DNA from: an uncultured Lentisphaerales bacterium
GTDB lineage: Bacteria > Verrucomicrobiota > Kiritimatiellia > RFP12 > JAAYLN01
Length of the DNA: 64,000 nucleotides
Reading direction: 5' to 3'
Assembly (NCBI GenBank): GCA_964592855.1
Contig: CAZQKI010000001.1
Span: 23,175-87,174, forward strand
Positions 8,663 through 62,165 of this stretch are shown piece after piece (position 1 is the stretch's first letter; every line of letters begins with the position of its first letter). A program made the position numbers and the translations under genes. The notes under the pieces were generated by a model. It searched no databases. It was given only the letters and a program-made list of their open reading frames with translations, and was not told the DNA's origin.

Positions 8663-8691
8663 GCAACATGGATTCGTGGCCAACTGGCGGC

Positions 8692-9379: not shown

Positions 9380-10537
9380 ATGACGAATCGTGAGCGCGCC
9401 CTGTCCGTACTTCGCTATCAACCGGTTGACCGCATGCCGCTGGTCTATTTCGGCTTCTGGCACGAAACGCTTCAGAAGTGGGCCGCAGAGGGGCACATCC
9501 GGGTGGAATTGGCGAAGGGGTGGGGGGACGGCAATGCGGCCGACTTCGAGATCGCCAAGCTGCTGGGTTTCGACTTCAACTGGCAGTCCTGCTTTTCAAT
9601 GGCCACTTTCCTGAAGCCGTATTTCGAGTCGGTGGTTATGGAAACGCTGCCGGACGGAACGCAGCACATCCGAAACGGGCTGGGTGTCACCGTCACGTCC
9701 AAGGCTGGCGCCGGCTCGATCCCCGCCGAAACCGACCATTTGCTGAAGGATCGTGCCTCCTGGGAGGAGCACTACAAACCGAGGCTGCAATGGGATCCCA
9801 GCCGCGTGGAGGAGGCCCGCGTCCGGATCGGCCAGCAACTCATTCCCTTCGGGCAGGGCGGGATGGAAGCCTTGCGGGATACGCCGCGGGACTGGCCGCT
9901 TTCGCTGCATTGCGGCAGCCTCATGGGAACCATCCGCAACATCGTGGGGATGGAGAACCTGTGCTATCTGGAAGTCGATGATCCCGACCTGTTGTTTGAA
10001 ATCATCGATACCGTCGCCGACCTGTGCTACCGCTGTGCCGAGCATGCGCTCAAGCGGGGCGGGGTCTTCGATTTCGGGCACTTCTGGGAGGACATCTGCT
10101 TCAAGAACGGACCGCTGGTCCGGCCGCAGCTGTTTGCCGAGAAGGTCGGCCCGCACTACCGCCGGATCACCGAACTGCTGAACCGGCATGGTCTGGACAT
10201 CGTCTCGCTCGATTGCGATGGTCAGATCGACGCGCTCATCCCCACGTGGCTGGACAACGGCGTCAACACGATGTTCCCGATCGAAGTGGGGACGTGGAAC
10301 GCCTCGATCGAACCCTGGCGCGCAACCTACGGGAAACGGATCCGCGGCGTCGGCGGGATGAACAAGACGGTGTTTTCCCGGGATCGGAAGGCCGTCGATG
10401 CAGAGGTGAGCCGGCTGATGAAGCTGGTGGAACTGGGCGGATTCATTCCCTGTCCCGACCACCGCATCGCTCCCGACGCGGAATGGGACAATGTCCGTTA
10501 CTACGCCGACCGGATGCGGGCGGTTCTGGGGGCGTAG
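9380..10537 (+). CDS. URO-D/MtaA-like family protein, paralogue 2
   Basis: 385 aa; ATG at 9380 with gagagga RBS; paralogous to 515-1597 and 49586-50584. Confidence 0.8.
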   Translation: MTNRERALSVLRYQPVDRMPLVYFGFWHETLQKWAAEGHIRVELAKGWGDGNAADFEIAKLLGFDFNWQSCFSMATFLKPYFESVVMETLPDGTQHIRNGLGVTVTSKAGAGSIPAETDHLLKDRASWEEHYKPRLQWDPSRVEEARVRIGQQLIPFGQGGMEALRDTPRDWPLSLHCGSLMGTIRNIVGMENLCYLEVDDPDLLFEIIDTVADLCYRCAEHALKRGGVFDFGHFWEDICFKNGPLVRPQLFAEKVGPHYRRITELLNRHGLDIVSLDCDGQIDALIPTWLDNGVNTMFPIEVGTWNASIEPWRATYGKRIRGVGGMNKTVFSRDRKAVDAEVSRLMKLVELGGFIPCPDHRIAPDAEWDNVRYYADRMRAVLGA

Positions 10538-10583: not shown

Positions 10584-10727
10584 GGGTTCAGGGTTCGGGG
10601 TTCAGTAAGGCCGCTGGCGGCCAGAGGCCGCCAGTTGGATCAAGGCAGAAGAACAAACTTTGTCGCGAGCTTTGTCGTGAGCTTTGTCGGCGGTGGTTCT
10701 CAGACCAGTGGGCCGTTGGATCAAGTA
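10584..10727 (+). repeat. Conserved intergenic element, copy A (about 95-bp core shared with 56023-56114); contains the triple direct repeat CTTTGTCG(c/t)gag, a duplicated ccagttggatcaag box and a GC palindrome gccgctggcggccagaggccgcc
   Basis: Direct comparison with copy B: gggttcag..gggttcagt(a/g)aggccgc..cagttggatcaa(g/c)gcag(a/g)agaacaaactttgtcgc(g/a)agctttgtc(g/t)tgagctttgtcg. Confidence 0.6.
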
Positions 10728-18517: not shown

Positions 18518-20131
18518 ATGGCGTATGAAGTTCTAGCGCGCAAGTGGCGGCCTCGGCAGTTTGTCGATGTCATCGGCCAGGAGCATGTAACCCGCACCCT
18601 CGAGCACGCCATCGCGAGCGGGCGCGTGGCGCATGCCTACCTGTTCGTCGGACCGCGCGGCATCGGCAAGACCACGCTTTCCCGTCTCTTTGCCAAGGCG
18701 CTGAATTGCGTGAAGGGACCGACGGCCAACCCCTGCGACGAATGTGATCTGTGCCGCGAGATCATGGGCGGCAACTCGCTGGATGTCATCGAAATCGACG
18801 GCGCATCCAACAATGGCGTGGACAACATCCGCGAGTTGCGCGACGCCGTTCAGTTCGCCCCCGCCCGCGCACGCTTCAAGATCTTCATCATCGACGAAGT
18901 CCACATGCTCTCCACGGGGGCCTTCAATGCGCTGCTGAAGACCCTCGAGGAACCGCCGCCCCACGCGAAGTTCATCCTGGCGACAACGGAGGTGGACAAG
19001 CTCCCCGCCACGATCATTTCGCGCTGCCAGCGGTTTGATCTGCGCCGCATCCCCACCGCGCTGATTGTCGAGACCCTGCGCCGCATCGCGACCAGCGAGC
19101 AGGTGGCGGCCGATACCGATGCCCTCCTGGCCATCGCCCGCGGCGCGGAAGGCGGCATGCGCGACGCCTTGTCCGCGCTGGATCAGATCATCTCCTTCAA
19201 GGGTTCGCCCGTCACGGAGGCCGATGTCTTAGCCATCTTCGGCCTGGTCTCCCGCGAAAACCTCGAACGACTCGCCACGGCCATTCTGAAGGGCGACATG
19301 GGCGGCGGACTTCAGATCATCGACGAACTGGACCGCGGCGGCAAGGATCTGCGCCGGTTGGTGCTGGAGTTGCTGGAACATTTCCGGAACCTGCTGGTGC
19401 TCCAGCACCTGGGCGACAAGACGGCGGCTTTGGATGTGACCCCCGAGCAGCTGGCGGCACTCGACATGCAGGCCAGTCTAGCGGACAGCGGGCGCGTGCT
19501 GCGCGTGGCCGAGCATCTCGCCGAACTGGAGGGACGCATCCGTCACGCGCTCTCGCGGCGAACCTTGTTCGAAACGGTTTTTGTCCGCTGCTGCCGGGCG
19601 ACGACGGTATCGACCATCGACCAGTTGATCCGTCAGCTTGCCGCCCTGCAGGGCGAAACCCCCGCCGCCATGGGTTCGGCCCCGTCCCCGGTCGACGCTC
19701 CCGCGCCCGCGCCTGCTGCGGCGCCGGCGGTCGCTCAAAGTACCGCTCCGGTCCCGGCCCCCGCCCGGGCCCCCGCCGCCATGGGTTCGGCCCCGTCCCC
19801 GGTCCATGCTCCCGCGCCCGCGCCTGCTGCGGCGCCGGCGGTCGCTCAAAGTCCCGCTCCGGCCCCGGCCCCCGCCCGGGCCCCCGCCGCTGGTTCGCTG
19901 CCTGCGGCCGTTTCCACGGTTTCGGCGGCACCGGTGGTCGCACGTGTTCCCGCTCCGGCTCCGGTTCCACCCCCTCCCAAGCCCGTTGTGGCGCCCCCGG
20001 CGCCCAAGCCGCCGCCCACCGTCTCCAAGCCTGCTTCGGCGAAGCGCGATCCGCTGGAGGACAAGGGCGTCAAGGCGGCCGTCGATCTTTTCAATGGACA
20101 AGTTGTCCGGGTCGAGGAAGCCCCGGCATGA
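18518..20131 (+). CDS. dnaX: DNA polymerase III subunit gamma/tau
   Basis: AAA+ clamp-loader motifs (GPRGIGKTT Walker A, DEVHML Walker B, SRC-motif region), a Cys4 zinc module (CVKGPTANPCDECDLC), then a Pro/Ala-rich C-terminal linker. Conserved synteny dnaX-ybaB-recR. Confidence 0.9.
   Translation: MAYEVLARKWRPRQFVDVIGQEHVTRTLEHAIASGRVAHAYLFVGPRGIGKTTLSRLFAKALNCVKGPTANPCDECDLCREIMGGNSLDVIEIDGASNNGVDNIRELRDAVQFAPARARFKIFIIDEVHMLSTGAFNALLKTLEEPPPHAKFILATTEVDKLPATIISRCQRFDLRRIPTALIVETLRRIATSEQVAADTDALLAIARGAEGGMRDALSALDQIISFKGSPVTEADVLAIFGLVSRENLERLATAILKGDMGGGLQIIDELDRGGKDLRRLVLELLEHFRNLLVLQHLGDKTAALDVTPEQLAALDMQASLADSGRVLRVAEHLAELEGRIRHALSRRTLFETVFVRCCRATTVSTIDQLIRQLAALQGETPAAMGSAPSPVDAPAPAPAAAPAVAQSTAPVPAPARAPAAMGSAPSPVHAPAPAPAAAPAVAQSPAPAPAPARAPAAGSLPAAVSTVSAAPVVARVPAPAPVPPPPKPVVAPPAPKPPPTVSKPASAKRDPLEDKGVKAAVDLFNGQVVRVEEAPA
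19668..19889 (+). repeat. Near-perfect 111-bp tandem duplication (x2) inside the dnaX Pro/Ala-rich linker
   Basis: gccatgggttcggccccgtccccggtc...gcccgggcccccgcc occurs twice back to back (19668-19778 and 19779-19889) with about 3 mismatches. Encodes AAMGSAPSPV(D/H)APAPAPAAAPAVAQS(T/P)AP(V/A)PAPARAP x2. Confidence 0.8.
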
Positions 20132-28919: not shown

Positions 28920-29092
28920 GGTTGTTTTCGAGTGGAAACGATTTGTCAAAAAGCAGTTTTGTATTTTACGCCAAGGCCTGTGAGAATGCAAGGATCGTTG
29001 CAGTGCGAAATTTTCCGGGCATTTCGTGGTTCTCGTCAATTATTTGGTCCATTTCGCGGTCCATTCCGCTCGGTTCATTTCATAAATTGCTG

Positions 29093-29121
29093 TTGGATAT
29101 GGCAACGGATTCTGCTACAAT
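29093..29121 (+). promoter_or_regulatory. Candidate sigma-70-type promoter for the ompA-like gene (TTGGAT-N17-TACAAT)
   Basis: Hexamers at 29093-29098 and 29116-29121 with 17-bp spacing, about 36 bp upstream of the ATG at 29157, in an unusually AT-rich divergent intergenic region. Confidence 0.35.
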
Positions 29122-29156
29122 CACCCCGCTTTCACGTTGATCCTGGAGTTAATAAA

Positions 29157-30461
29157 ATGAAATCGAGCGATTATTGCACGCACACAATAAAGGTCCTGCT
29201 GCTAGCCGCAACCTGCTTGACGGCCCAACTGCATGCCGAGGATGAGGATTACGCCCGCTGGTACTTCAGCCCCGGGGCTGGTTTTTACCTGACCGAAGGG
29301 GATGAACCGGTTGAGGACGGGTTCATCCTGAACGCCCGTTTGGGCTATGACTACAACGAATGGTGGAGTCTTGAGGGCGGACTGCTGCTCGCTCCGAGTT
29401 TGGACGAACAATTCTATCCTGCGGAATACGGCGGCCACTCCTGCGTGGACGACAAACCGGGGGAGCGGTTCGGCAGCACCTGGATGGCCACCATCTACGG
29501 TGACGCGCTTTTCCACTTCACGCGCTGGGAGCGGCTGGACCCCTATCTCGCCGGCGGCCTGGGCTTCATCCTCTATGGAGATGACGTCCTGGATCATGGC
29601 GAGTCGAGTTCCGCTTTCGTGCTGCGCGCGGGTGCCGGACTCATGTACCATTTCAACGACGCCTGGGCCTTTCGGACCGATTGGCGCCTGCTCCTGACCT
29701 CGGACAACACCGAGTTCAACACGGTTGCCGACGTAGGCGTCGTCTGGACCTGGGGCGCCGGTGTTCCGCCGGACATCCTGGCGACGGACGGTCCGATCGA
29801 CAGCGATGGCGACGGCCTCGCGGACGATCACGAGCGTCGCATCGGCACGGATCCCTACGATCCCGACACCGACAAGGATGATTTGACCGATGGGCAGGAA
29901 GTCCTGACCTACAAGACCGATCCGCTCAATCCCGACACCGATTTCGATCTGTTGAAGGATGGCGCCGAAGTTCTGACCCACAAGACCGATCCGCTGAACC
30001 GCGACACCGATGCGGGCGGCGTCTACGACGGACATGAAGTCCTCGAAGATAATACGAACCCCCTGTACGGTCCCGACGATTTGATGATGTTCGAGCTGAA
30101 CATCAATTTCGATTACGACAAGTCGATCATCAAGCCGGTCTACTTTGATGACCTGAACAAGATTGTCAAGGTTTTGACGCGGCATCCCGAAGCCACGGCG
30201 CTGATCGAAGGGCATGCCGACCGTCTGCGGACGTCCAAGGCGGCCTACAATCGCCGTCTCTCCGAACACCGTGCCGAAGCCGTGCGCCAGTACATCGCCG
30301 GCAAGGGTGTTGGCGCCAACCGCATGCGTGCCGTCGGGTATGGTTTCGACCGTCCCAAGGCGGCGCAGAATCTGGAAACCGGAACGCCGGCCAATCGTCG
30401 CGTCGAGGTCTACATTCGCGGCATCGACCGGGCGGCCGTGCTGAATACGCTGAAGCAATAG
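29157..30461 (+). CDS. OmpA-family outer-membrane protein with thrombospondin type-3 (calcium-binding) repeats and a C-terminal OmpA/peptidoglycan-binding domain
   Basis: Signal peptide; N-terminal beta-barrel-like region; repeated D.DGDG.aDd..D.dp motifs (DSDGDGLADDHE..TDPYDPDTDKDDLTDGQE..TDPLNPDTDFD..); OmpA C-like motif (..NINFDYDKS.I..., ..ALIEGHADR.., ..NRRLSEHRAEAV..). Confidence 0.8.
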   Translation: MKSSDYCTHTIKVLLLAATCLTAQLHAEDEDYARWYFSPGAGFYLTEGDEPVEDGFILNARLGYDYNEWWSLEGGLLLAPSLDEQFYPAEYGGHSCVDDKPGERFGSTWMATIYGDALFHFTRWERLDPYLAGGLGFILYGDDVLDHGESSSAFVLRAGAGLMYHFNDAWAFRTDWRLLLTSDNTEFNTVADVGVVWTWGAGVPPDILATDGPIDSDGDGLADDHERRIGTDPYDPDTDKDDLTDGQEVLTYKTDPLNPDTDFDLLKDGAEVLTHKTDPLNRDTDAGGVYDGHEVLEDNTNPLYGPDDLMMFELNINFDYDKSIIKPVYFDDLNKIVKVLTRHPEATALIEGHADRLRTSKAAYNRRLSEHRAEAVRQYIAGKGVGANRMRAVGYGFDRPKAAQNLETGTPANRRVEVYIRGIDRAAVLNTLKQ

Positions 30462-49526: not shown

Positions 49527-49585
49527 TTGCGACGCCAGGCCCGGTCGGTCGGCTCTGCTTGTTTCCGTCATCATTGGGGAGTATC

Positions 49586-50584
49586 ATGACATCCAGGGAT
49601 ATCATTCGCCACACGCTGGAGTATTCGGGACCGGAGCGGGTCGCCCGGTCGTTTGGCGACTCGGACTTCCGCGGTGCCGGCTGTACCGTCAAGACCCATG
49701 CCACAGAATGGCAGGAGGTCGGCGGCGGACGCTGGGAGCGGATCGACGAGTGGGGCAACACCTGGGCGCGTCTCGAATCGACTTCGAAAGGCGAGGTGGT
49801 CAAGGGCGTCCTCGCCAGCATGGACGACGCACGCACGTACCGGTTTCCCGATTACTCGAATCCCGCCGACTACGCCGTCGCCGTGGAGAACCGGGCCAAG
49901 TTCGCCGACAAGTGGCTGATCGGCAGCATGCCCGGCTTCACCTTCAACATCGCCCGGAAAATGCGGAAACTGGACCAGTATCTCGTGGACCTCCTGCTGG
50001 AGCCGGAGGCGATGCATGCCTTCCATGACCGGATCGATGTGCTGCTGGGGGACATGATCCGCAACTACGCGGCCGCCGGCGTCGATGCCGTCATGTTCCC
50101 CGAGGACTGGGGCACCCAGACGCAGACGCTCGTCAGCCCCGACTTGTGGTGCGAGGAGTTCTTCCCCCGCTTCGTCAAGCTGTGCGGCCTGGCCCACGAC
50201 CTCGGCATCAAGGTGTTCATGCACTCCTGCGGACAGATCGAGGCGATCGTCCCGGGGCTGATGGAGGCCGGCATCGACCTGCTGCAGTTCGACCAGCCCG
50301 ACCTCCATGGCATCGACATCCTGGCCGGGCATCAGGAGCGGGGCAAGATCACCTTCTGGTGTCCGGTCGACATTCAGAAGACCCTGCAGCAGCGCGACGA
50401 GCAGGTGATCCGCGCCAAGGTCCGGGAGATGCTCGACAAGCTCTGGCGCGGCCGGGGTGGGTTCATTGCGGGCTTTTACGGCGACAATGTCTCGATCGGC
50501 CTTGATCCGAAGTGGCAGGAAATCGCCTGCGATGAGTTCACGAAGGTCGGGCTAGCCGCGAATTACGTGGAACGTGATGCGTGA
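49586..50584 (+). CDS. URO-D/MtaA-like family protein, paralogue 3
   Basis: 332 aa from the ATG at 49586; URO-D-family pattern (..AGVDAVMFPEDWGTQ.., ..HSCGQIEAIVPGLMEAGIDLLQFDQP..); last gene of the kinase-SIS-SIS-TIM operon. Confidence 0.8.
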   Translation: MTSRDIIRHTLEYSGPERVARSFGDSDFRGAGCTVKTHATEWQEVGGGRWERIDEWGNTWARLESTSKGEVVKGVLASMDDARTYRFPDYSNPADYAVAVENRAKFADKWLIGSMPGFTFNIARKMRKLDQYLVDLLLEPEAMHAFHDRIDVLLGDMIRNYAAAGVDAVMFPEDWGTQTQTLVSPDLWCEEFFPRFVKLCGLAHDLGIKVFMHSCGQIEAIVPGLMEAGIDLLQFDQPDLHGIDILAGHQERGKITFWCPVDIQKTLQQRDEQVIRAKVREMLDKLWRGRGGFIAGFYGDNVSIGLDPKWQEIACDEFTKVGLAANYVERDA

Positions 50585-50627: not shown

Positions 50628-51845
50628 TCAATCAATGGTCGCAAGAAATCCCGGGGCCAGCCTCGCCGCGAAAACCTGCGGGATGCCGTGCGGGGCGGAG
50701 TTGTAGATCACGTAGCGGTTGTCGGCGGTCAGATAGGGGTGCGTGTGCGTGCATTGGTTGCCGCCTCCCACACACCCGACATCCTCGACCAGGGTCCGGA
50801 ATTTGCCGTTCTCAAGATTGCCGATCACCAGCGAGGCCGGCTTGCTCTGGCCGTTCTCGAACAGACCCGTTCCGGTGTGTGAATCGGCGATGAAGTAGCG
50901 TCCGCACCGCGACGCGCTGATGTGGTTGAACCGGTGCTGGGGCGCCTCGAACACCGTCGGCTTGCGGTCGCCCGGCTTCGCCGTGAACAGGTTGCCTTGC
51001 GGATGCAGCGGACTGTGCCGCCAGTCGTACTGGCTGTGATGAACCCACCCGGCTGAGAACAGGACGCGCCCCGTGTCGGCGACGAAGCATTCATGCCCGG
51101 TGACGCCGTGCGTGACCGGGGGGCCCGCCGGAACGAAGCGCTGGTTCCTGCCGTCCTGATCAATCACGAACAGCTTGCACCCCGCCGTCTGGTAGGCGTC
51201 CCGCGAGCCGTCCTTCTTCAGCCGGATGCCGGCGTTGTTCTGCACGAGGATCTGCCGGCCGTGCACGGGGTTGAACTGCAGATGCGGGTTGCAGATCTCG
51301 GGATGCTCGAAGATCACCTCGCGGATCTTCTTCTCGAGGTCGAGGCGGAGGATCTGGAACACCGGCGCCCCTTTGCCTTTTAAACGGGGGTTCATCCAGA
51401 TCATGTAGCGTTGATCGGGCGAGATGGAACTGCCGCCGCCGCCGACCGGAAGGGGGGCGTCCGGATCATCCTCGGCATAGACTTCCTTCTGCTCCAGTGT
51501 CATCAGCGAGAGCTGCATCAGCCGCCGCTCGGGCGTCCAGTAGTACATCAGGCCGCTCCACGCGGAGGTGCAGACGGTCCGCACGCCCATGGCCCGCCGC
51601 ACGACCATCGTGATGGCCAGCCGGTCCAACTCGTGCACGAGCAGCGCACCCTCCGTGTCCCAGCAGAAATCCTGGCAGCGGGCGATGATGATCCGCTTGC
51701 CGTCGGGCGAGGTGTAGGGCTGCTCCCCGTAGATGTTGTTGCTGATCGCGGCCGCGCTGGTCAGCTGCTGGATCCGCGCGCCGCTGACGGGATCGTCCCG
51801 CAGGTCGGCCGATTCGTGTGCCCATTGGATTGGCTGGTTGCTCAT
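50628..51845 (-). CDS. Oligogalacturonate lyase-like (PL22-like) beta-propeller protein
   Basis: About 405 aa; TolB-like propeller pattern with an N-terminal ..RIQQLTS..NNIYGEQPYTSPDGKRIIIAR.. resembling PL22 Ogl; start provisionally at MSNQPIQW (51845) to avoid overlap with the giant gene stop. Confidence 0.5.
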   Translation of the reverse strand: MSNQPIQWAHESADLRDDPVSGARIQQLTSAAAISNNIYGEQPYTSPDGKRIIIARCQDFCWDTEGALLVHELDRLAITMVVRRAMGVRTVCTSAWSGLMYYWTPERRLMQLSLMTLEQKEVYAEDDPDAPLPVGGGGSSISPDQRYMIWMNPRLKGKGAPVFQILRLDLEKKIREVIFEHPEICNPHLQFNPVHGRQILVQNNAGIRLKKDGSRDAYQTAGCKLFVIDQDGRNQRFVPAGPPVTHGVTGHECFVADTGRVLFSAGWVHHSQYDWRHSPLHPQGNLFTAKPGDRKPTVFEAPQHRFNHISASRCGRYFIADSHTGTGLFENGQSKPASLVIGNLENGKFRTLVEDVGCVGGGNQCTHTHPYLTADNRYVIYNSAPHGIPQVFAARLAPGFLATID

Positions 51846-51864
51846 ATTCCCCGCTTGCCGCAGA

Positions 51865-54800
51865 CTACTTTTCCGCGAATTTGTCATGTGTGATCAGTTC
51901 AAACGCCCGGGAAGGCTTGGATTCCCGTTTCTCGGCATTCACCGTCGTCATAAATAGATACATCTTCGTCTCTGGCCGCAGCCCCGTGATCGACTGGTTG
52001 TCCTTCAAGCCCTTGGCCAGAAGGTCGGCGCCGCGTCCGTCCGCATACCGGCTGAGATAAAGGTTGTAGGTCAACGCCGGGTCTTGATCGAACCGGATCA
52101 GCATGTTCCGTCCGTCGTTGAAGTGCTGTGGCTCCTCGAACCGCTTGATCGCCGGCGCGTTCCCCATCCCTTCGGCGGAGAGCCGGGCGATCGGATTCTC
52201 CGACGGGCCCGTCCACTCGGGCATTGGCGTGCGAAGGCGGCTCGTGGCAACAGCCGGGTCGGCGGCCTGTTCTTCCGACGCATACTCTGCGACCAGGCCG
52301 GCCAGCGTGTAGCTACGTTCCTTCACGAGCTGCATGACGCCAAGCACCGGCACTTCGTTGCGGGCCTCGACGATGATCTTCTCCAGCTTCAATGGCAGAT
52401 CGACCGCGCCATCGCCACCCCGCGAACCCCACCAGGTGGTCTCCAGGTCGCGCGCACCGTCCCCGGGCTTGCTGCCGGGCAGCGGAAAACGCACGTAACG
52501 CCAGCCATCGAAGCTCACGTACGACCAGGCATGGGTGTCGTCGCAGTTCCAGTCGTTGCGGGTGCCCACGGATGTCCAGACTTCGCCCTTGGCGTCGCGG
52601 CACTGGTACACGATACGGCCCCACGAGGAATTGCCTTTGATCCAGACCCCCAGCGCCTCGGCCTTGCCGGGGATCGTGACGGGCTTCTTCAACTTCAACT
52701 GTCCGTAGCGCGTGGCCATCGGCCGGTCGCCCGGTTCGACGGGCAGCGTGACGGCCACCGCATCGGCATGTCCCGCCTCGCCCGGGCCGAACTCGGCTTT
52801 CAAGTTCGGGTCCGTGATCCGCCGCATCGCAAAATGATTCTCCGCATACTCCTTGTCAGCCGATCCGTCGTAGACCCACTGCCCGGCGGTGAAGGGGGCC
52901 AGCGGACGCGTGACCGCGGCGGGCGCCTCGGTGTACCGCGACGGCGCGAGCGTGATCGCTTCGATCACTCCGGCCCCCGTGAGCCAGACCGGCAGGGAGG
53001 TGAGCGTGATCGTGAAGGCGCCTTCCTTGACGGGGCAGGGGACGGCATTGCCCATGGAGTCGGTGACGACCGGCCGGGCCCCGTTCATCGTGACCGTCGC
53101 CTCGCTGGTGCCGTTGACCCGCCACATGGCGTAGATCATCGCCTGATCCGCTGTCCGCTTGAATGCCAGGCAATAGGCCGTCAGGGATCCGGTGTCCACC
53201 GGGCCGACGACATCGGCGCCGCAGAGCATGGCGGTGGCGGTGGCCACGGCGGCCACGGCCGGCTTCGGATTCTCCAGGGGCCGGCGATGGAAGATGCCGG
53301 CGCCGTAGTGCTCGGCCCCGTAGTAGTTCCCGGCGTCCTGCGGCACAATGCCGGCCTCGAACTGCTCGACCCCGTAAGCCAGCGCAAGAAGCGTGTAGCG
53401 GATCTGGTACTCGGCCTGCTCACGCTCGGTCAGTGCTCCGGGCTGCGTGGGAAAAAACGGCCCTTCGCACCAGGCAATCGGCAGGTTCGGCCAGCCCAGC
53501 TTGGCGGCTTGCTGACGCAACGCCCACAGCAGATTGATCGACCCGGTGACGTTGGAAATCTCTGGCAGCAGCTCGAATTGCGGCGCGTCCATGCCGTATA
53601 GGTCGACCAGCTCCTTCGGCATGCCGGCGCGCATGTAGGCGATCGTCCCCTGCGGCGCTCCCCATTGCAGGACCAGCCGGGTTTCGGGACGCTTCGCACG
53701 GACACCCTTGCCGATGGCCGTGAAGATCTTCACGTGCCGCCCGGCATTGGCCTGCTCGATGTCGGTCAGCCCCCGGTCGCCTTCGTCCGTGTAGGCCGGC
53801 CACGGCGCGTACTGCACCGCTTCGCTGATGGCCCACTCGCCGCCGTAGAAGTAGGAAGTGCCGGTGAAATTGGAGGCGATGCTGGCTACTTCGCCGGCAA
53901 CGGCCTCCGCCATGGCCGCGCCATCCACGGTGCCGTCCGGCAAGACCGTCTTGCTGAACTGGTTGCCGACCGTATGGGGTCCGTTGGGGATGAAATCCAG
54001 CCGCTTGAGCAAGCCGGCATTGACAAAAGATTCATGTAGGCTGGTGCGGCGCAGCCCGAGGCGGCGGTACAACGCCAGCGTCCGCTCGTTCGCTGCAAGA
54101 TCGCCGGCCTTCATCGCGGCGTAGTGGCCGAACAGTTCCCAGATGCCAAAGCGTGTTTCATTGGCCGCGTTTCCATACGTGCGGCGGTTGGGCGGCAACA
54201 CGACCAGGCTCAGATCGGCTTCGCGCTTGACGCCGGCCCCTTCGACCTCGACCTTGAGCCCGTGCCAGCCCAATGTCTTCAGGTCGAACGTCAGCGCGAC
54301 GTTCTCCGCCCGGCCGGGCTGGACAACGGCACTCGCCTTGACGGTACGCGTTTCGGTCCCGTCATAGCTGCTCGATGTCACCCGGACCTCCGCCTGGATG
54401 GCCTTTGTCGTCGTATTGGTCACGGCGATGTCCAGAACCGGCTTTTCGGGGCTTTCAAACACAAAATGCGTCTGCCGGGGCGTGACCTGGAAACCGAAGG
54501 GCGCCTCCTCCAGCGTGATCCCGACGATGTGCAGCGAACTGGGAAGCCCGGCGGGATGGTAGCCGTAGTAGATCGGGTCCGGGTAGCTACGGCCCAGTTC
54601 GACCGGCTTGCTCAGTTCGAACTCCAGGAACTGGTCGGCCATGTCGCGCATGCCGTACAACCCCGCCGTGTTCACCGGCACCCGGATCAGATAGAGCGGC
54701 TTGCCGTCCGCCGTCTGCTTCGCCAGCTTCTTCACAAGGCCTTTGCGAATGGCCTCGTCGGTGATCTCCAGATCGGTGCTGGTGGGAAAACCCGCATGCT

Positions 54801-55839
54801 CCTTGAAAAACCGCAGCGTGCCTCTGGGTACCGTGTCGGGCCGTGCCTCGCTCCAGGCCAGCAGCCAGATGTTCTGGTAGTTCCGGTACGGCACGCGGAA
54901 GGTCAGCGAAGCGGGGTCGGCCTGAAATGAACCGGGCCAGGAACACTGGCCGTTCACATACCCGACATCGGGGCCGCTGCCATGGGTGAGTCGGTAGCGG
55001 TAGAGCGAATCGCCGAGGTTGATGTCGGGTGTCCCCGTTTTCGGCAGACGCAGGGGAATCGACTCCACCGTCTCTAGCGTGCTCGCGGGCCGGGCCGCCT
55101 GCGCCTGGCGGGCGTGGCTGTAGGCCTCGAGCGGCAGGGGGAGGAAGCGGCCGTGGTCCGGCGGTGCGGAGAATCCGGCCGAGAGCAGGCTGGCCGTCCC
55201 GGTGAGTTGAACCACCCACCGCACCGGATGCTCCGCGGCGATCCGCTCCTCCGCCACCAGCCGGTCATCCAGCCAGATCTGGCGCGTGTCCCGGGTCAGC
55301 GTCATCCGTACCGTAAACACCTTCTCCGCGAACGGCACGCACGCGGCGTAGGCCGAGCCGATCTCCCGGAGGTCGCGTTCGTCCCAGAGGTTCTTCACTT
55401 TCGGGAACCGCCAGCGATAGGCGATCGCGCCGCCCTTGTCGTCCGGCGTTCCCCAGAATCGGCTGGAGACCGCATCGGTTGCCATGAGTCGCCCCGCCGC
55501 GTTCGCCCGGACGGACGCCTGATTGGGGCCGGTTGGCCGGAACACGCACTCCAACAGCGGCTTGGGCTCATTTGTCGGCCCGACCGCACGGAGCGTGAGT
55601 AGATCGCCATCCGCGGCACGGAGGCGGAAGACCGCCTCGACCGGCAACGGCATTGCCACCTTCGTCTGGAGTTCAAGCGGTGCGCCCCCCTTCGCCTGGA
55701 CAACACGACCCGTTTCGGTCTGGCCTTTGACGACGGTCCATCCCTCCGGCGCGAAGGTGTTCTCAAACGATGGCGGCGCCGCAGGAATGGCCGTAGCCAC
55801 CAATGCCGCTGCAAGTCCGATAATCAAGCGCACGTTCAT
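51865..55839 (-). CDS. Very large secreted protein (about 1324 aa) of unknown function, paralogue A; C-terminal FN3-like module
   Basis: Start trimmed to MNVRLIIGLAAALVATAIPAAPP (ATG at 55837-55839 with aggaga RBS). Shares conserved blocks with the 56398 gene (..SLYRYRL../..SLYRYRM..; ..GYHPAGLPSSLHIVGITLEEAP../..GYQAGGLPSSVRIYGLTLEEAP..). Confidence 0.75.
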   Translation of the reverse strand: MNVRLIIGLAAALVATAIPAAPPSFENTFAPEGWTVVKGQTETGRVVQAKGGAPLELQTKVAMPLPVEAVFRLRAADGDLLTLRAVGPTNEPKPLLECVFRPTGPNQASVRANAAGRLMATDAVSSRFWGTPDDKGGAIAYRWRFPKVKNLWDERDLREIGSAYAACVPFAEKVFTVRMTLTRDTRQIWLDDRLVAEERIAAEHPVRWVVQLTGTASLLSAGFSAPPDHGRFLPLPLEAYSHARQAQAARPASTLETVESIPLRLPKTGTPDINLGDSLYRYRLTHGSGPDVGYVNGQCSWPGSFQADPASLTFRVPYRNYQNIWLLAWSEARPDTVPRGTLRFFKEHAGFPTSTDLEITDEAIRKGLVKKLAKQTADGKPLYLIRVPVNTAGLYGMRDMADQFLEFELSKPVELGRSYPDPIYYGYHPAGLPSSLHIVGITLEEAPFGFQVTPRQTHFVFESPEKPVLDIAVTNTTTKAIQAEVRVTSSSYDGTETRTVKASAVVQPGRAENVALTFDLKTLGWHGLKVEVEGAGVKREADLSLVVLPPNRRTYGNAANETRFGIWELFGHYAAMKAGDLAANERTLALYRRLGLRRTSLHESFVNAGLLKRLDFIPNGPHTVGNQFSKTVLPDGTVDGAAMAEAVAGEVASIASNFTGTSYFYGGEWAISEAVQYAPWPAYTDEGDRGLTDIEQANAGRHVKIFTAIGKGVRAKRPETRLVLQWGAPQGTIAYMRAGMPKELVDLYGMDAPQFELLPEISNVTGSINLLWALRQQAAKLGWPNLPIAWCEGPFFPTQPGALTEREQAEYQIRYTLLALAYGVEQFEAGIVPQDAGNYYGAEHYGAGIFHRRPLENPKPAVAAVATATAMLCGADVVGPVDTGSLTAYCLAFKRTADQAMIYAMWRVNGTSEATVTMNGARPVVTDSMGNAVPCPVKEGAFTITLTSLPVWLTGAGVIEAITLAPSRYTEAPAAVTRPLAPFTAGQWVYDGSADKEYAENHFAMRRITDPNLKAEFGPGEAGHADAVAVTLPVEPGDRPMATRYGQLKLKKPVTIPGKAEALGVWIKGNSSWGRIVYQCRDAKGEVWTSVGTRNDWNCDDTHAWSYVSFDGWRYVRFPLPGSKPGDGARDLETTWWGSRGGDGAVDLPLKLEKIIVEARNEVPVLGVMQLVKERSYTLAGLVAEYASEEQAADPAVATSRLRTPMPEWTGPSENPIARLSAEGMGNAPAIKRFEEPQHFNDGRNMLIRFDQDPALTYNLYLSRYADGRGADLLAKGLKDNQSITGLRPETKMYLFMTTVNAEKRESKPSRAFELITHDKFAEK

Positions 55840-56022
55840 GTCAAGGGTTCTCCTCTTGGACGATCCGGCCCCGGCCCGCGCCGGCGAGGTCGCAATTTCG
55901 TGTCGGGACGATGCGGTCGAAAAAATTGTCGACCGGAAAAACTCATACAGTATGCTGAATTGCAGCCGGGTCGTCAATCTGCGCGGCAAAAAAGACGCGT
56001 CAACTTCGTTGCCACGCCCCAA

Positions 56023-56114
56023 GGGTTCAGGAAACAGGGTTCAGTGAGGCCGCCAGTTGGATCAACGCAGGAGAACAAACTTTGTCGCAAGCTTTGTCTT
56101 GAGCTTTGTCGACC
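56023..56114 (+). repeat. Conserved intergenic element, copy B (see 10584-10727), between the divergent giant paralogues
   Basis: aagggttcaggaaacagggttcagtgaggccgccagttggatcaacgcaggagaacaaactttgtcgcaagctttgtcttgagctttgtcgacc, about 90% identical to the core of copy A. Confidence 0.6.
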
Positions 56115-56397
56115 TATTGCAGGCCGCCGCGCGGACCGCCTACGATCGATCATTCGCAGCTTCCTGCAAAAGACGCATGGGCAGGCTTTCTAAGCGTCGC
56201 ATTGTAGTCCTTACACGGAATATCTGAATAATCCTGTAAATCCTGTAATCTTGTCTGAGACAATTTCAAGACGCTTGGACTCTAAATAATCCGCTTGTCA
56301 CCCATTCACAGTCGGCATACACTCGCCGCACGCGAGATGAAACGCCATTCGTAGTGGACCGCACCCGGACGCGCAGATCCGGGCAAAGGACGATGCC

Positions 56398-59300
56398 ATG
56401 ATACGCAGGACGACGACGATTGCAGGGTATGCCTTGATGGCGGGATTGGCCGCGTTCGCCGCGGAACGCCGCGCGCCGGTGGCCGCGCTGCCGATGGAGC
56501 CGGCCGCCGTGAGCGAAGCCTGGGTGGTCAACGATGAAACCAGCACCTTCGCCCTGGGCGTGATCCGCGACGACCTGCTGGCCCGCCCGGTGTTGGAGGT
56601 CGCGTCGCGCAACCTCGACACGCGCGCGGTGCGCAACAAACAGCATGAATACCGGCTCACCTCCCGGGCGACCGCCAAGGGCGCTTACGTCGTCGAGGCG
56701 CTGCTGCGGTTTCCCGATCTGCCGCGGCTGGATGAGCGCGGACGCCCGGTGCGAGCCCGACCCCGTGCCAGCCTGTCGGTCGGATTGCTCACCAACGACC
56801 TGCCCGCCTTTGTCCTGGAGGGGGGGACGGGCGTTTCGCCGCTGTTCATCTGGTCGGTGAAGCGTGGCGACGACCCGCCGAAGGCGAAGCCGGTTTCCGG
56901 GAGCCTGAAGGCGAATGTCACGCCCGACATCTCGCCGCTCTCGCCAGAAGCGTTCCGGTTGGAATCGGAAGCCGAACTGGCCCGCATGCCCCGGCCGGAG
57001 AACTGCTGGATTCCGGTGCGCATCGAGGTCGGTGCCTCCCACCTGCGCTTTTACTTCAACGGCTGCCTGGCGCTGGAACGGCTGCGTGAAGCCGGTACCG
57101 ACGGCCCCGTCACGCTGACCCTGCGCGACCGCGTCCGCATCGCCTCGCTGGAGGTGCGCCCGCTGCCCGGCGACAACGCCCCCTTCGTCACCGTCCCGCT
57201 CGACTCCCGCTGCAATGCCGCGGCGACGCTCGCCTCAGACGCCCTGGCTGCCGTCCGCCAGACCGGCGCCGTACACGGTGTCCCCTTTGTGTTCCCGGCC
57301 ACCGTGCCGTTTGACCACGTCGACGTCGGGCAGAGCCTCTACCGCTACCGGATGGGCACCTCCTATACCGCCGACTACGATCCCCGCATCACCGCGCCCA
57401 GCCCCGCCGAGTTCGAGCCGGGGCGCATCCTGCTGACCGTGCCGAAACGCGCCTACCGGCGGGCCTGGCTGCTGGCCGGCGCCGACGGCCGGGAACACCA
57501 CGTGCCGCTGGTCACGCTGCGCTTCTACAAGCCGTTCACCGGTTGGTCCACCGACACCGCGGTGACGGTCCCCGCCTTCGCATCCAGAGATGGCGGGACG
57601 GCCAAGCCCGTCGCGGTGCGGGATGCCGCCGGCCAGGCGGTGAACCTCTGGCTGGTTCCGGTCGATCTCGACGCTGCGGCACTGGCCGCCGACTTCACCG
57701 GCGATGTGATGCACATCGAACTGACCAAGGCGGTCAAGCCGAACCTCGCCTATCCCGATCCCGCGAACTACGGCTACCAGGCCGGAGGACTGCCGAGTAG
57801 CGTGCGCATCTACGGCCTCACGCTTGAGGAGGCGCCGGTGCAGGCCGTCGCCTCGGGCGACTTGTTCGGCAACACCTACACTGACCCCGAGCAACTGGTC
57901 TGGCAGGTCACGGTACAAAATCGGACGGCCGACACGCTTCCCGTCGAAATCACGGTCGCGGCCACCGATCCCTACGGACTAGCCGCCGCGCCGACGGTCA
58001 AGCGGCTGGCGCTCAAGCCGGGCGAGACGCAGGTGCCGGCCTTTCCCTTGAAGCCCGCCGTCCTGGGCCTCCATGCGGTTCGCACCACCGTCAAGGCCGG
58101 CGACTGGAGCCAATCCCGCGAGGGTTACTTCCTGCGCCTCCCGGCCTTCGCCCGCCGCGAGACCGGCGTCACCAGCCCCTGGGGCGTGTGGAACTGGGGC
58201 GGCACGCACGCCACGCATGGCGACCTCGACGACAACGGCCGGCTGCTGAAGGCTGTCGGCGCCATCAACAATCACGATCTGACGGCGTCGCCCGCCCGCG
58301 GCCAGCCCGCCGTCAATCTCAACGAGTTCAGGAAAAAATGGGGGCTGGGGGCGACGCATGACCGCATCATTCCGCGCGATCCGCCACTCTGGGCCGCCAA
58401 GGATCCGGTCGATCCGGCCGAGCGCGAAGCCTACAAGGAGGTGATCGGAAAACGGGCCCGGCAGTTGAAGGACGACCATCCCGACTTCCAGTACGTCAAC
58501 TGCTTCGCCGAGAATTCCGTCTCGCTTCGCTTGACCCATGGCGTCCGCGCCTCGGCCTTCGGCCTGCCGGAATACGAATTCAACGAGAAGGAACTGGCCC
58601 GCTTGCGCCACCTGCTGACCGCCGCACTGGCGGGGGCCGAGGGCGTTCGCCAATACGCTCCCGAGGTCAAGTTCATCTTCGGGCACGGCGCCGCCAATTT
58701 CGCATGGCCCTTCTTCACGCAGCCGGACTGGAACTTCGACCTCTTCGCCGGCATCGGACTCGATCTGCCGCAGTTCGAGCGGATGCCGGAACGCCAGCCG
58801 CGCGCGACCGAGCCGAGCCTCCTCTATTTTCTCCGGGAGGAACTGAAGGCGCGCGGCCAGATCGACAAGGAACTCGTCCATCTCGAATCCTACTTCCCGG
58901 GAAGCCACGAACTGGCGCTGGGACTCCGGGGACAGGCCGACAGCATCGTCCGCACTGCAGTCCTCTCCCTGGCGCTGGGCACGACCAAGTTCATGCATAC
59001 GTGGAGCCTGCAGGACTGCGCCGACCGCTGGGGCAGCCAGCACTACGGCGGATGCGGGCTCTACGCCCGCATCCCGGAGAGCAATCCCAAGCCCGCCGCG
59101 GCCGCCTTCGCCACGATGACCCGCGTGCTGGACCGGGCCCGCTTCGACGGCTGGATCGATACGGGCAGCCTCAGCACGTTCTGCATCCGCTTCAAGGGCG
59201 AAGACCGGCTGGTCTACGCCGTCTGGACCATCCGCGGCACGCGTCCGCTGGAGGTCGTCGTGAACGCCGGGTCGGCCGGGATTGAACGGATTGATGATAA

Positions 59301-60516
59301 CGGGAACACCTTCCCGGTTGCCGTTGCCGGCGGCAAGGCCGTCGTGCCACTCGCCCCGACACCCTGCTGGATCGTGGTCCGGGGTGGTGCGCTGGCTTCG
59401 GCGGCGGCCGGCGAACCGGTGCATGCCGAGGCGCCCGGCGAGCGCGTCGTGATGCTTGACGACTTTGAAACGCGCGACTGGCAATATGCACCCGGCGCCT
59501 ATGATCGTTACGGCAGCAACAGCTGGGACATGGCCCGCGAGCCGACCGTCCTGGAACAGTCCCGCGTCCGTTCGGAAGTGCGCGGCTCGACCGTCTGGCG
59601 CGTGAGCGCCCGCGCGCTCAAGCTCGACCGTCCCTGTGCCGGACAGTACGGCGTCTTCACGCCCCCCCGGCCGATCCCGATTCCCGGGCAGGCCAGGGCC
59701 ATTGGCATCCGCGGCAACGGCCGCTCGCAATGGTTCCGCCTGGTCTACGAGCTGCAGGACGCACGGGGCGAAACGTGGATCAGCTGCGGGCCGAAGGATG
59801 CCTGGAATTCGGACGACATCCACTCACGCTCCTTCATCAATCACGACGGCTGGCGCTACATGGAGTTCCCGCTGCCTGCCAGCGCCCCGGGCGACAACTA
59901 CCGGGAGATCGGCTGCTACTCGTGGGGCGGTTCGGACGACGGCATCGTCGACCTGCCGCTGAAGCTGACCCGGATCATCGTCGAGATGCGCAGCCATGTG
60001 GTCTACGCTAACGAGATGCTCCCCGTTCCGCCGGAGGACTGGACCCTTGAGCTGGATGATCTGGTCGCCGTCTACGAACGGCCGGAAGATCAGACGGATG
60101 CGCCGGTGAAGCTACAGGCGACGACCAAGGACGTCTGGCGGCCCCGCCGCGTCGATTTGGACCTGCCGAATCCGATCGAGCGGCTGCGTGAGGCGGGCGT
60201 CGGGAACGCCGCCGTCATCGAGAAGATCTATCCGCCCGAGGTGATGGCCGGCGGCGACCAGGTGTATGTCCGCATCCATCCCGTCGCGGATGCGCAGAAG
60301 TATACGGTCTATGTCTCCGCCTACGAAAATGGCACGGGCGCGCAGGTGACGGGGCAGATGCAGAGCAAGGACGAGCCGTCGACGATCTGGGTCCGCAAGC
60401 TGCAGCCCGCGATACCGATGTACTTCTTCGCCACGTACACGGACAAGGACGGCAAGGAATCCAAACCGTCGGTTGTCCGCAAGACGATCTTGCGCGACGA
60501 ATTCCCGTTCAAGTAG
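56398..60516 (+). CDS. Very large secreted protein (1372 aa) of unknown function, paralogue B; C-terminal FN3-like module
   Basis: Signal peptide MIRRTTTIAGYALMAGLAAFAA; collinear conserved blocks with paralogue A; C-terminal ..YTVYVSAYENGTG...SKPS.. FN3-like end. Confidence 0.75.
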   Translation: MIRRTTTIAGYALMAGLAAFAAERRAPVAALPMEPAAVSEAWVVNDETSTFALGVIRDDLLARPVLEVASRNLDTRAVRNKQHEYRLTSRATAKGAYVVEALLRFPDLPRLDERGRPVRARPRASLSVGLLTNDLPAFVLEGGTGVSPLFIWSVKRGDDPPKAKPVSGSLKANVTPDISPLSPEAFRLESEAELARMPRPENCWIPVRIEVGASHLRFYFNGCLALERLREAGTDGPVTLTLRDRVRIASLEVRPLPGDNAPFVTVPLDSRCNAAATLASDALAAVRQTGAVHGVPFVFPATVPFDHVDVGQSLYRYRMGTSYTADYDPRITAPSPAEFEPGRILLTVPKRAYRRAWLLAGADGREHHVPLVTLRFYKPFTGWSTDTAVTVPAFASRDGGTAKPVAVRDAAGQAVNLWLVPVDLDAAALAADFTGDVMHIELTKAVKPNLAYPDPANYGYQAGGLPSSVRIYGLTLEEAPVQAVASGDLFGNTYTDPEQLVWQVTVQNRTADTLPVEITVAATDPYGLAAAPTVKRLALKPGETQVPAFPLKPAVLGLHAVRTTVKAGDWSQSREGYFLRLPAFARRETGVTSPWGVWNWGGTHATHGDLDDNGRLLKAVGAINNHDLTASPARGQPAVNLNEFRKKWGLGATHDRIIPRDPPLWAAKDPVDPAEREAYKEVIGKRARQLKDDHPDFQYVNCFAENSVSLRLTHGVRASAFGLPEYEFNEKELARLRHLLTAALAGAEGVRQYAPEVKFIFGHGAANFAWPFFTQPDWNFDLFAGIGLDLPQFERMPERQPRATEPSLLYFLREELKARGQIDKELVHLESYFPGSHELALGLRGQADSIVRTAVLSLALGTTKFMHTWSLQDCADRWGSQHYGGCGLYARIPESNPKPAAAAFATMTRVLDRARFDGWIDTGSLSTFCIRFKGEDRLVYAVWTIRGTRPLEVVVNAGSAGIERIDDNGNTFPVAVAGGKAVVPLAPTPCWIVVRGGALASAAAGEPVHAEAPGERVVMLDDFETRDWQYAPGAYDRYGSNSWDMAREPTVLEQSRVRSEVRGSTVWRVSARALKLDRPCAGQYGVFTPPRPIPIPGQARAIGIRGNGRSQWFRLVYELQDARGETWISCGPKDAWNSDDIHSRSFINHDGWRYMEFPLPASAPGDNYREIGCYSWGGSDDGIVDLPLKLTRIIVEMRSHVVYANEMLPVPPEDWTLELDDLVAVYERPEDQTDAPVKLQATTKDVWRPRRVDLDLPNPIERLREAGVGNAAVIEKIYPPEVMAGGDQVYVRIHPVADAQKYTVYVSAYENGTGAQVTGQMQSKDEPSTIWVRKLQPAIPMYFFATYTDKDGKESKPSVVRKTILRDEFPFK

Positions 60517-60530
60517 CCGCGTGATAAACT

Positions 60531-62165
60531 TTATAGCGGTGGACGGACACACGGTTCGGCGCGCTGGGCGTGGTAGAGCGTGATCAACTCGGCAAAGGTC
60601 CGGTTGCAGGTCGCGTTCGGCTTGCCCCCGTTCAGCTTGAGTTCGGCGTCCAGCAGCGCCCGCAGGTAGAGCTGCCGCCAGCGCCAGGAGTGGCGGGCCT
60701 GGGGTGTCAGTTGCGCATCGACACGCTGCAGGGTCGCGTAGGCCGCCTCCGCGCCGGCGTCCTCGCGGGGCGCCGCATTGCGCGACGGGAACCAGTTCAG
60801 CGGCAGGACCACCCCGTCGAGTTTGCCCGGCCACCAGCGCATATGGTGGTTCCGCTCCAGCGTCTCCACCACCTGGAGCACCGGTTCGACCGCCGCCGGC
60901 GCAAATTCGAAGGCGATGTACTCCCGCACCGTTTCGACGGCCGGCCGGCCGCTCCAGTAGAACTGGCTGTAGACGGCCTTCGTGAGGTCTTCGTAGATGC
61001 CTTCGGAATAGGGGAAGCCGCCGGCGCTGAGGTGCTTGACGTCGTCCCATTGCCGCTGCGCCCGGCCCGTCAGCGGCGTGGCGCCAAACCCGCCCCAGGG
61101 GAAGGTCTCGTGCATGCTGATCTCGGGGAAGCCGACCATCGGCAAGCCGCCGGGCGTCGGGCGCTTCGTCCCCTCCGCCAGGATATAATCGACGAACGGC
61201 TTTTCCGCCGCAAAGGCCTGATCGAGACCCTGCCGTTCAGCCTCGTTGAAAAACCAGGTCGAGAGGATCAGCCGGCAATCGGCCAGCTTGCGCCGGGCCA
61301 GATCGGCGACCGACTCGGCGAGCTTTAAGAATCCATTGTTTCCCCAAGGCTGGCAGGCGGCGCAGCCGCATCCGCCCTGATCGTAGGGCCAGATCGCCAG
61401 GTAGCGGGGGTGAAGATCGGCCGCCCAGTCGAACAACTGGCCGATCAAGTTCAGTATGTAGGCCTTGCCCCCGGGAACGCTCGGGCAGACCGTGCAGTCA
61501 TACCAGCCGCCGCGCCGGGCACTGGGATCGGCCCGCAAGGCCGTCGGCGAGTTGTTGTAGGCCTCATTGGCGAGCGCGAAAAACGCGACATCCAGGCCGA
61601 TGCGCCGCGCCGCGCTGCAGATCGCGTGCAACCGGGTCCGGTACGCAACGGCTTCGGGATCGTCGAATCCGTTGAAGTGGTGCATGTCGTTCCACACGGC
61701 CAGGACATTGAAACCCCAGAGACCCAGATCCTCGACGTAGTGCTGAACCTCCTCGACCGGAGCGTCGTGGTAGAAGTTGTGGAAGTGCGTGGCGAGGTAG
61801 ATGCCTCGCACGGGCTTTTCCGGGACGGATGTTCCGCGCCATGTCCCGGCGGTGACGTTTCCCTGATCGCCGCGCGAAGTCCGGAGGAACTTGCCCACGC
61901 CGTAAAGCACGCCGCGCTCGCCGTCGCCCGCGATCCGCACGCCGCCGCCGGGACGATCCTCGATGAGGAAGCCGTCGGCGCCGATGCCCGATGCGAGCGT
62001 CAGTTCCACCGTCAGCGGCGCATCGCCGGCGAAGACAACCTCCACCGGGCCCCGCTCCGTCAGTTGCCGCGCCAGCAACGCCGCGATCGTTTTCATGACC
62101 GCCGATGCGTCGTTCTCCATCACGATCCTGACGCGGTTCACCGGGACAAGTTTTGCAGTTTTCAT
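60531..62165 (-). CDS. Putative glycoside hydrolase-like protein (N-terminal alpha/beta domain plus TIM-barrel-like region; GH20-like fold or DUF4838-like, unconfirmed); no signal peptide
   Basis: 544 aa; N-terminal ..AVMKTIAALLARQL..VEVVFAGD..TVELTLASGIGADGFLIEDRPGGGVRIAGDGERGVLYGVGKFLR.. domain typical of GH20/67/115-type N-domains; Cys cluster CGCAAC. Confidence 0.55.
   Translation of the reverse strand: MKTAKLVPVNRVRIVMENDASAVMKTIAALLARQLTERGPVEVVFAGDAPLTVELTLASGIGADGFLIEDRPGGGVRIAGDGERGVLYGVGKFLRTSRGDQGNVTAGTWRGTSVPEKPVRGIYLATHFHNFYHDAPVEEVQHYVEDLGLWGFNVLAVWNDMHHFNGFDDPEAVAYRTRLHAICSAARRIGLDVAFFALANEAYNNSPTALRADPSARRGGWYDCTVCPSVPGGKAYILNLIGQLFDWAADLHPRYLAIWPYDQGGCGCAACQPWGNNGFLKLAESVADLARRKLADCRLILSTWFFNEAERQGLDQAFAAEKPFVDYILAEGTKRPTPGGLPMVGFPEISMHETFPWGGFGATPLTGRAQRQWDDVKHLSAGGFPYSEGIYEDLTKAVYSQFYWSGRPAVETVREYIAFEFAPAAVEPVLQVVETLERNHHMRWWPGKLDGVVLPLNWFPSRNAAPREDAGAEAAYATLQRVDAQLTPQARHSWRWRQLYLRALLDAELKLNGGKPNATCNRTFAELITLYHAQRAEPCVRPPL

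Follow-up and report, generated by a model that had tools for sequence, protein, structure and literature searches.

The stretch of DNA analysed here, referred to as the window in the following, comprises 64,000 nucleotides of contig CAZQKI010000001.1 (assembly GCA_964592855.1, positions 23,175 to 87,174 of the forward strand) from an uncultured Lentisphaerales bacterium and has a guanine-cytosine (GC) content of about 64%. It contains two very large, divergently transcribed genes, which we call A and B (Table 1) and whose products are likely to be secreted glycoside hydrolases from a family that sequence databases do not yet recognize. The open reading frame (ORF) of gene A reaches up to position 56022 (51865-56022, minus strand), the sensible start being the ATG at 55839, from which the protein begins with a typical Sec signal peptide (residues 1-21, MNVRLIIGLAAALVATAIPA); gene B likewise encodes a signal peptide (residues 1-22, MIRRTTTIAGYALMAGLAAFA). 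In BLASTP, 1142 residues of the two proteins align with 30% identity and an E value of 8e-126, and the alignment runs collinearly from residue 226 of A and residue 257 of B to both C-termini. Pfam, NCBIfam and PDB (phmmer) sequence searches with A and B returned nothing significant. A first-pass annotation of the window, made from the sequence and its ORFs, had described two divergent genes for very large secreted paralogues with collinear conserved blocks, fibronectin type III (FN3)-like ends and no nameable match. This description is borne out: both ORFs are intact, both proteins contain the quoted blocks SLYRYR[LM] and GY[HQ][PA]GGLPSS..[VI].G[IL]TLEEAP, and the guess at FN3 was correct. 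Its further suggestion of 'uncharacterised giant enzymes' was a fair guess in the light of what follows, while its notion of a locus 'built around' the pair did not hold.

A and B are old paralogues within a large unannotated family found mostly in uncultured bacteria of the Planctomycetes-Verrucomicrobia-Chlamydiae (PVC) type and, by sequence comparison, belong to two different old subfamilies. Using tblastn, we found A-type orthologues with 72-75% identity in four genomes, i.e. L080 (a PVC-group genome), L053 (Kiritimatiellia), L048 and L067, and B-type orthologues with about 60% identity in six (L001-L006). Set against these values, the 30% identity between A and B leads us to reject a recent tandem or local duplication. 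We also rejected the idea, raised in the first-pass annotation, that one of the copies might be a pseudogene; neither is decayed, and since both are full length and have close orthologues, both are under purifying selection. A protein identical to B occurs on JGI metagenome contigs (samples 3300044990 and 3300044987). The divergent arrangement, by contrast, is found in none of the 80 related loci, so that it does not represent a conserved A/B module.

The extent of this family becomes apparent only in sensitive searches. A word-indexed search of 5.8 billion clusters returned just 26 relatives, all of them 1.2-1.4 thousand residues long, free of Pfam domains and, wherever named, called 'hypothetical protein'. 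The family is far larger than this, because an exhaustive profile search, in which residues 250-1372 of B and six relatives were compared with 1.84 billion representatives at 50% identity, yielded 2645 representatives at E<=1e-3, of which 980 reach <=1e-10 and 518 reach <=1e-30. Almost all of the 2645 come from uncultured PVC bacteria, from Omnitrophota and Latescibacterota or from lineages related to these, and the family is represented in at least 80 species, nearly always by metagenome-assembled genomes (MAGs). In GTDB species genomes, a scan gave 81 loci, all in MAGs or metagenome bins. Most of these loci belong to Verrucomicrobiota (Chthoniobacterales, Opitutia, 'Spartobacteria'), Lentisphaerae, Kiritimatiellia and Planctomycetota, the remainder to Omnitrophota, Latescibacterota, Gemmatimonadaceae, Polyangiaceae and Ratteibacteria, and several single genomes harbor three or four copies.

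For insight into the fold, two segments of B (residues 256-1010 and 1010-1372) were modeled. The first model, obtained with AlphaFold2 from a 26-sequence alignment, is of high confidence, with a mean predicted local distance difference test score (pLDDT) of 88.3 and a predicted template modeling score of 0.90; the second is good, with a pLDDT of 83.5. Their centerpiece is a (beta/alpha)8 barrel of the clan GH-A type, which is preceded by an all-beta N-domain and an Ig-like beta-sandwich, and followed by another beta-sandwich, a jelly roll resembling CBM11, CIA30 and FlaA1, and the FN3 domain. The SLYRYR and YPDP..GGLPSS..TLEEAP blocks are located in or beside low-confidence loops of the all-beta N-domain. 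For the Ig-like region, there are additional hints from sequence, namely a weak match to PF17786 (Mannosidase_ig) in A and a sub-threshold, collinear alignment to residues 45-81 of PDB entry 5JVK. The N-terminal part of B (residues 35-255) probably forms a concanavalin-like jelly roll of the CBM66/DUF1080 type, that is, a lectin domain; the matches that suggest this are weak, with E 0.08 for the family profile against the CBM66 of levanase (4AZZ) and a weak PF06439 match in 2 of 26 family members.

At the other end, the extreme C-terminus follows a conserved [LT]xDxFxx[K]-COOH pattern, which reads LRDEFPFK in B (60490-60513) and THDKFAEK in A (51868-51891). Among 89 representatives that reach the end of the profile, 72 extend no further, and in 72 the final residue is Lys. 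This tail, which is modeled with low confidence, might serve as a signal for sorting or anchoring or might make an intramolecular contact.

In clan GH-A, the acid/base glutamate is found at the C-terminal end of barrel strand 4 and the nucleophilic glutamate at the end of strand 7. Judged by strand position and by conservation across about 160 diverse family representatives, both have counterparts in B and A. The candidate acid/base of B, Glu705, lies three residues past strand B699-702 (barrel strand 4; 444-447 in the model) and is a glutamate in 156/157 representatives, while the candidate nucleophile, Glu830, ends strand B825-831 (barrel strand 7; 570-576 in the model) and is conserved in 161/163. 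Two further barrel residues are similarly constant: Glu798, for which a role in substrate binding appears plausible, is a glutamate in all 158 representatives, and Arg852 is an arginine in 161 of 162. All four residues are retained in A, where the three glutamates correspond to Glu668 (Glu705 in B), Glu760 (Glu798) and Glu792 (Glu830), and the arginine to Arg814.

Table 1. Features of the A/B locus and of the proteins that it encodes; residue numbers refer to the named protein
Feature	Position in window	Strand	Description and basis
Gene A	51865-55839	minus	1324 aa, A-type paralogue; ORF and translation
Gene B	56398-60516	plus	1372 aa, B-type paralogue; ORF and translation
N-terminal domain, B 35-255	56500-57162	plus	probable lectin domain; weak profile matches only, outside the modeled segments
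All-beta N-domain, B 256-480	57163-57837	plus	model
Ig-like beta-sandwich, B 485-581	57850-58140	plus	directly N-terminal to the barrel; model
(beta/alpha)8 barrel, B 590-912	58165-59133	plus	clan GH-A type, putative catalytic domain
Barrel equivalent, A 559-873	53221-54165	minus	mapped by B-to-A alignment (BLASTP)
Post-barrel beta-sandwich, B 915-1004	59140-59409	plus	arrangement as in GH39, GH30 and GH51; model
Jelly roll, B 1015-1225	59440-60072	plus	resembles CBM11, CIA30 and FlaA1
FN3 domain, B 1274-1372	60217-60513	plus	tail ...LRDEFPFK-COOH
Glu705 of B	58510-58512	plus	candidate general acid/base, YVNC-FAE; model strand position and conservation
Glu798 of B	58789-58791	plus	third invariant Glu, P-E-[RQ]-Q loop past strand 6
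Glu830 of B	58885-58887	plus	candidate nucleophile, ELVHLE; model strand position and conservation
Glu668 of A	53836-53838	minus	alignment mapping
Glu760 of A	53560-53562	minus	alignment mapping
Glu792 of A	53464-53466	minus	alignment mapping
A/B divergent intergenic region	55840-56397		558 bp
Promoter-like, sigma-70-like hexamers facing A	55977-55949	minus	consensus matches only
Promoter-like, sigma-70-like hexamers facing B	56295-56323	plus	consensus matches only
Dispersed element of about 95 nt, copy 1	56020-56111	plus	repeat comparison
Dispersed element, copy 2	about 10598-10689		repeat comparison
PL22-like protein	50628-51887	minus	419 aa, oligogalacturonate-lyase-like, downstream of A
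544-aa protein	60531-62165	minus	without signal peptide

The closest structural neighbors of the family are GH39 enzymes, and the model places the barrel nearest to two divergent representatives, GH39wh2 (5JVK) and PslG. In a comparison of the family hidden Markov model with PDB sequences, 5JVK was also the only significant match, with E 3.5e-4 for a model built from 7 sequences and E 7.8e-5 for one built from 26. We therefore consider it likely that A and B are secreted, retaining glycoside hydrolases of clan GH-A that are closest to the GH39wh2/PslG branch, carry several modules of the carbohydrate-binding type and probably act on different linkages. They are best read either as very divergent GH39 enzymes or as an unclassified sister family. 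Several observations weigh against this interpretation. Where the profile matches 5JVK significantly, it aligns with helix 8 and the beta-sandwich rather than with the catalytic strands, and no Pfam glycoside hydrolase model, including PF01229 (GH39), matched any of the 33 scanned members (A, B, 24 close and 7 distant relatives) at E values up to 5. Furthermore, the family lacks the asparagine that precedes the acid/base glutamate in the clan GH-A motif N-E-P; the position is instead occupied by Ala (50), His (39), Gly (19), Pro (17) or Trp (13), with B reading FAEN and many members xEP. The putative catalytic roles of Glu705 and Glu830 are read solely from strand positions in the model. Lastly, many of the neighbors in related loci have housekeeping functions, among them MnmA, a beta-CASP RNase and an epimerase, and for this reason the genomic context, which is described below, is only suggestive.

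The missing asparagine would also fit a different view, in which A and B are non-catalytic glycan-binding or surface-adhesion proteins whose TIM barrel has degenerated into a lectin-like relic. With three or four CBM- or lectin-like beta domains and an FN3 domain, the proteins are rich in potential binding modules, and the best-conserved part of the family is not the barrel, but the C-terminal jelly roll (B1015-1225). Barrel conservation is nevertheless high (0.6-0.7 per column), and both glutamates, the third glutamate and the arginine are about 99% conserved across phyla. Such conservation is typical of catalysis and would be unexpected in a decayed barrel, which makes a purely binding function very unlikely in our opinion.

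The additional conserved residues could alternatively indicate that the GH-A scaffold has been recruited for non-hydrolytic chemistry, for instance for transglycosylation or another carbohydrate modification that employs Glu798 and Arg852. Retaining GH-A enzymes, however, often possess extra conserved acidic or basic residues for substrate binding, such as those by which GH79 and GH2 glucuronidases recognize uronic acids, and the best structural matches to the barrel are all hydrolases. We regard this alternative as having only a slim chance of being correct, and hydrolysis by a retaining clan GH-A enzyme as the preferred reading.

If A and B are indeed such hydrolases, their mode of action may be envisioned as follows. 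Each protein would consist, from the N- to the C-terminus, of the signal peptide, the probable CBM66/DUF1080-like lectin domain, the all-beta and Ig-like domains, the GH-A barrel with its trailing beta-sandwich, the CBM11-like jelly roll and the FN3 end. In the periplasm or extracellularly, a complex polysaccharide would be bound by the additional jelly-roll modules, and the barrel would cleave a glycoside in beta linkage, or in a linkage of equivalent stereochemistry such as alpha-L, by a double-displacement (retaining) mechanism, with the glutamate past strand 4 (Glu705 in B, Glu668 in A) acting as acid/base and the one ending strand 7 (Glu830 in B, Glu792 in A) as nucleophile. GH39wh2 and PslG are endo-acting enzymes with an open groove, and by analogy, A and B might also be endo-acting. 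The linkages attacked by the two proteins would probably be related yet distinct, within a complex glycan that may be acidic or sulfated, and the products of this cleavage could then feed the neighboring cytoplasmic PL22-like and GH63-like proteins, as well as the sugar kinase, the SIS-domain isomerases and the xylose-isomerase-like protein encoded further to the left.

These neighbors are arranged on both sides of the pair. The 5' end of the PL22-like gene, whose product lacks a signal peptide, overlaps the 3' end of gene A, and farther to the left, on the plus strand between 46.0 and 50.6 kb, there are genes for a uroporphyrinogen decarboxylase (URO-D)-like protein, a xylose-isomerase-like TIM barrel protein, two SIS-domain proteins and a NagK/BadF-like kinase. 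To the right of B lie the genes for a 544-residue protein and for a GH63/MGH1-like hydrolase. The first-pass annotation had rightly placed A and B among carbohydrate-active genes. Its GH63-like assignment is well supported (GH63/MGH1-like; PF22422, E 7e-30). Its PL22-like assignment is backed by a match that is only marginal, at 31 bits for PF14583 with a cut-off of 30, restricted to the C-terminal ~40-60 residues (E 5e-6 for PDB entry 3PE7). Among the immediate neighbors, the PL22-like gene is nevertheless the only one that is conserved next to family genes elsewhere; copies with 80% identity adjoin the A-type genes of L080 and L048. For the 544-residue protein, which the first-pass annotation had called GH20-fold-like, Pfam, NCBIfam and PDB searches gave no match. 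An 'ALANEAY' motif in this protein, together with G..YG...FL near its N-terminus, recalls a GH-A barrel with a GH20b/DUF4838-type N-domain in front of it.

When neighboring genes were clustered across the 80 related loci, GFO/IDH/MocA oxidoreductases (12 loci), sulfatases (11), DUF4838 proteins (9), BNR_2 proteins (at least 9) and heparinase II/III-like proteins (7) were found to recur, along with GH51 enzymes, a GH42M-like protein and the PL22-like protein. This neighborhood suggests a role in glycan degradation. It also bears on the question of which glycan is processed, as A and B might trim an exopolysaccharide or envelope glycan of their own cell instead of serving in nutrient acquisition, much as PslG, a GH39 enzyme, trims Psl during the synthesis of the biofilm matrix. 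The pair, however, adjoins catabolic genes (those for the PL22-like and GH63-like proteins, the sugar kinase, the SIS isomerases and the xylose-isomerase-like protein), and no glycosyltransferase, Wzx/Wzy or export gene was identified among the scanned genes next to it. Moreover, the related loci are mostly degradative in character, with their sulfatases, GH51 enzymes, BNR proteins and heparinase-like lyases. Processing of the cell's own polysaccharide thus seems improbable, though less so than the two alternatives discussed above, and we continue to favor a role for A and B in glycan breakdown.

Elsewhere in the window, some genes resemble those seen near other family members. A 1132-residue ORF (5264-8662, plus strand) has no Pfam match, but is a distant relative of DUF4838 proteins (26% identity over 490 residues, E 1e-21), namely of those that adjoin family members in the 9 other loci. 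In addition, there are two URO-D-like genes with the fold of uroporphyrinogen decarboxylase and MtaA-like methyltransferases (9380-10537 and 49559-50584, both on the plus strand) in carbohydrate-gene contexts, and relatives of the former, with about 31% identity, are located near family members in L078 and L031.

The intergenic region between A and B, called AT-rich in the first-pass annotation, has a GC content that falls to 43-57%, compared to 65-74% in the coding flanks. The motifs that had been pointed out in it are physically present, but the 10-mer, the 9-nt tandem and the hairpin do not exceed what chance would produce. The 10-mer TTGCCACGCC at 56009 occurs twice in the window, a number reached in 4 of 100 shuffles, and we rejected it as a meaningful motif. 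The tandem consists of two AATCCTGTA units at 56230-56247, and the hairpin CCGGA...TCCGG (56365-56382), ahead of the start codon of B, folds no better than shuffled sequences (z +0.44). The 'conserved repeat element' is real: its 66-nt core (56046-56111) matches 10624-10689 with 94% identity and forms part of a dispersed element that contains two to three GGGTTCAG repeats (two in the copy at 56020-56111) and three CTTTGTC motifs at 12-nt spacing. Since convergent genes flank the other copy, which is situated just past a URO-D-like gene, this element is not simply a promoter module. Its predicted RNA fold is not unusual compared to shuffles (z +1.48), and with no Rfam match anywhere in the window and the two fold scores given above, we rejected a functional RNA or riboswitch in the intergenic region. 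In public metagenome contigs, a first search pattern for the element gave no matches, and a second gave one partial match (L083), limited to the CTTTGTC core.

Three further observations concern repeats in other parts of the window. Two genes that begin near 3565 and 8692 are 82% identical at their 5' ends (3564-3658 and 8691-8785), which encode a signal-peptide-like N-terminus (M.TK.AW...AGFAIAC.A.PVLGNVW), and look like paralogous genes for secreted proteins; a further 83-nt stretch is 89% identical between 7602-7684 and 8832-8914. A 111-nt tandem duplication in perfect register (19659-19880, 96% identity) is situated within a dnaX-like gene (18518-20131) for the gamma/tau subunit of DNA polymerase III. 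Lastly, the ORF at 28932-30461 contains a 69-nt tandem repeat (29847-29984), whose Asp-rich translation in DPxDxDxD units is similar to thrombospondin type 3 repeats.

In Verrucomicrobiota, Kiritimatiellia, Lentisphaerae, Planctomycetota and candidate phyla, lineages that degrade complex glycans in soils, sediments and waters, much of the coding capacity that lacks an explanation consists of large secreted 'hypothetical proteins'. For one such family, with thousands of members and neither a Pfam nor an NCBIfam model, the present analysis provides a fold, a domain map and candidate residues that are ready for mutagenesis. Confirmation of the activity would add a family or subfamily to CAZy and improve the annotation of carbohydrate degradation in many MAGs. 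No new biological principle is indicated; going by the model, the family is probably dark in sequence but not in structure, and composed of enzymes of a known mechanistic kind rather than of a new kind of protein. More tentatively, and with somewhat less than even confidence, we propose that it constitutes a new CAZy-level family of clan GH-A, sister to the GH39wh2/PslG branch. It would then be set apart by its atypical motif, with no asparagine before the acid/base and with an additional invariant glutamate and arginine, by a fixed seven-module architecture and by an undescribed specificity, for instance for a sulfated or uronic-acid glycan, with A and B representing two distinct specificities.

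How these proteins relate to known systems is best seen in a comparison with other enzymes of clan GH-A. GH30 and GH79 enzymes likewise combine the barrel with a tightly packed beta-sandwich, but their structural scores are clearly below that of 5JVK and a link at the level of sequence profiles is absent. GH2 enzymes, such as the beta-glucuronidase of Bacteroides uniformis (6D50/5UJ6), also proceed from a beta-sandwich or jelly roll via an Ig-like domain to a GH-A barrel, and Foldseek aligns them over about 730 columns with E values of about 1e-18; yet none of the Pfam GH2 domains (sugar-binding, Ig-like, TIM barrel) was matched, and the likeness is one of domain order only. PslG from Pseudomonas aeruginosa (4ZN2), a GH39 endo-glycanase of 442 residues that acts on the exopolysaccharide Psl, is encoded within an exopolysaccharide biosynthesis operon, whereas no such operon surrounds A and B. 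The nearest known relative is GH39wh2 (BACCELL_00856, 5JVK) from Bacteroides cellulosilyticus WH2, itself a divergent member of GH39 in CAZy. The identity to this protein of about 590 residues is only 14-16%, and A and B are longer by roughly 800, which they owe to two N-terminal beta domains, the CBM11-like jelly roll and the FN3 domain.

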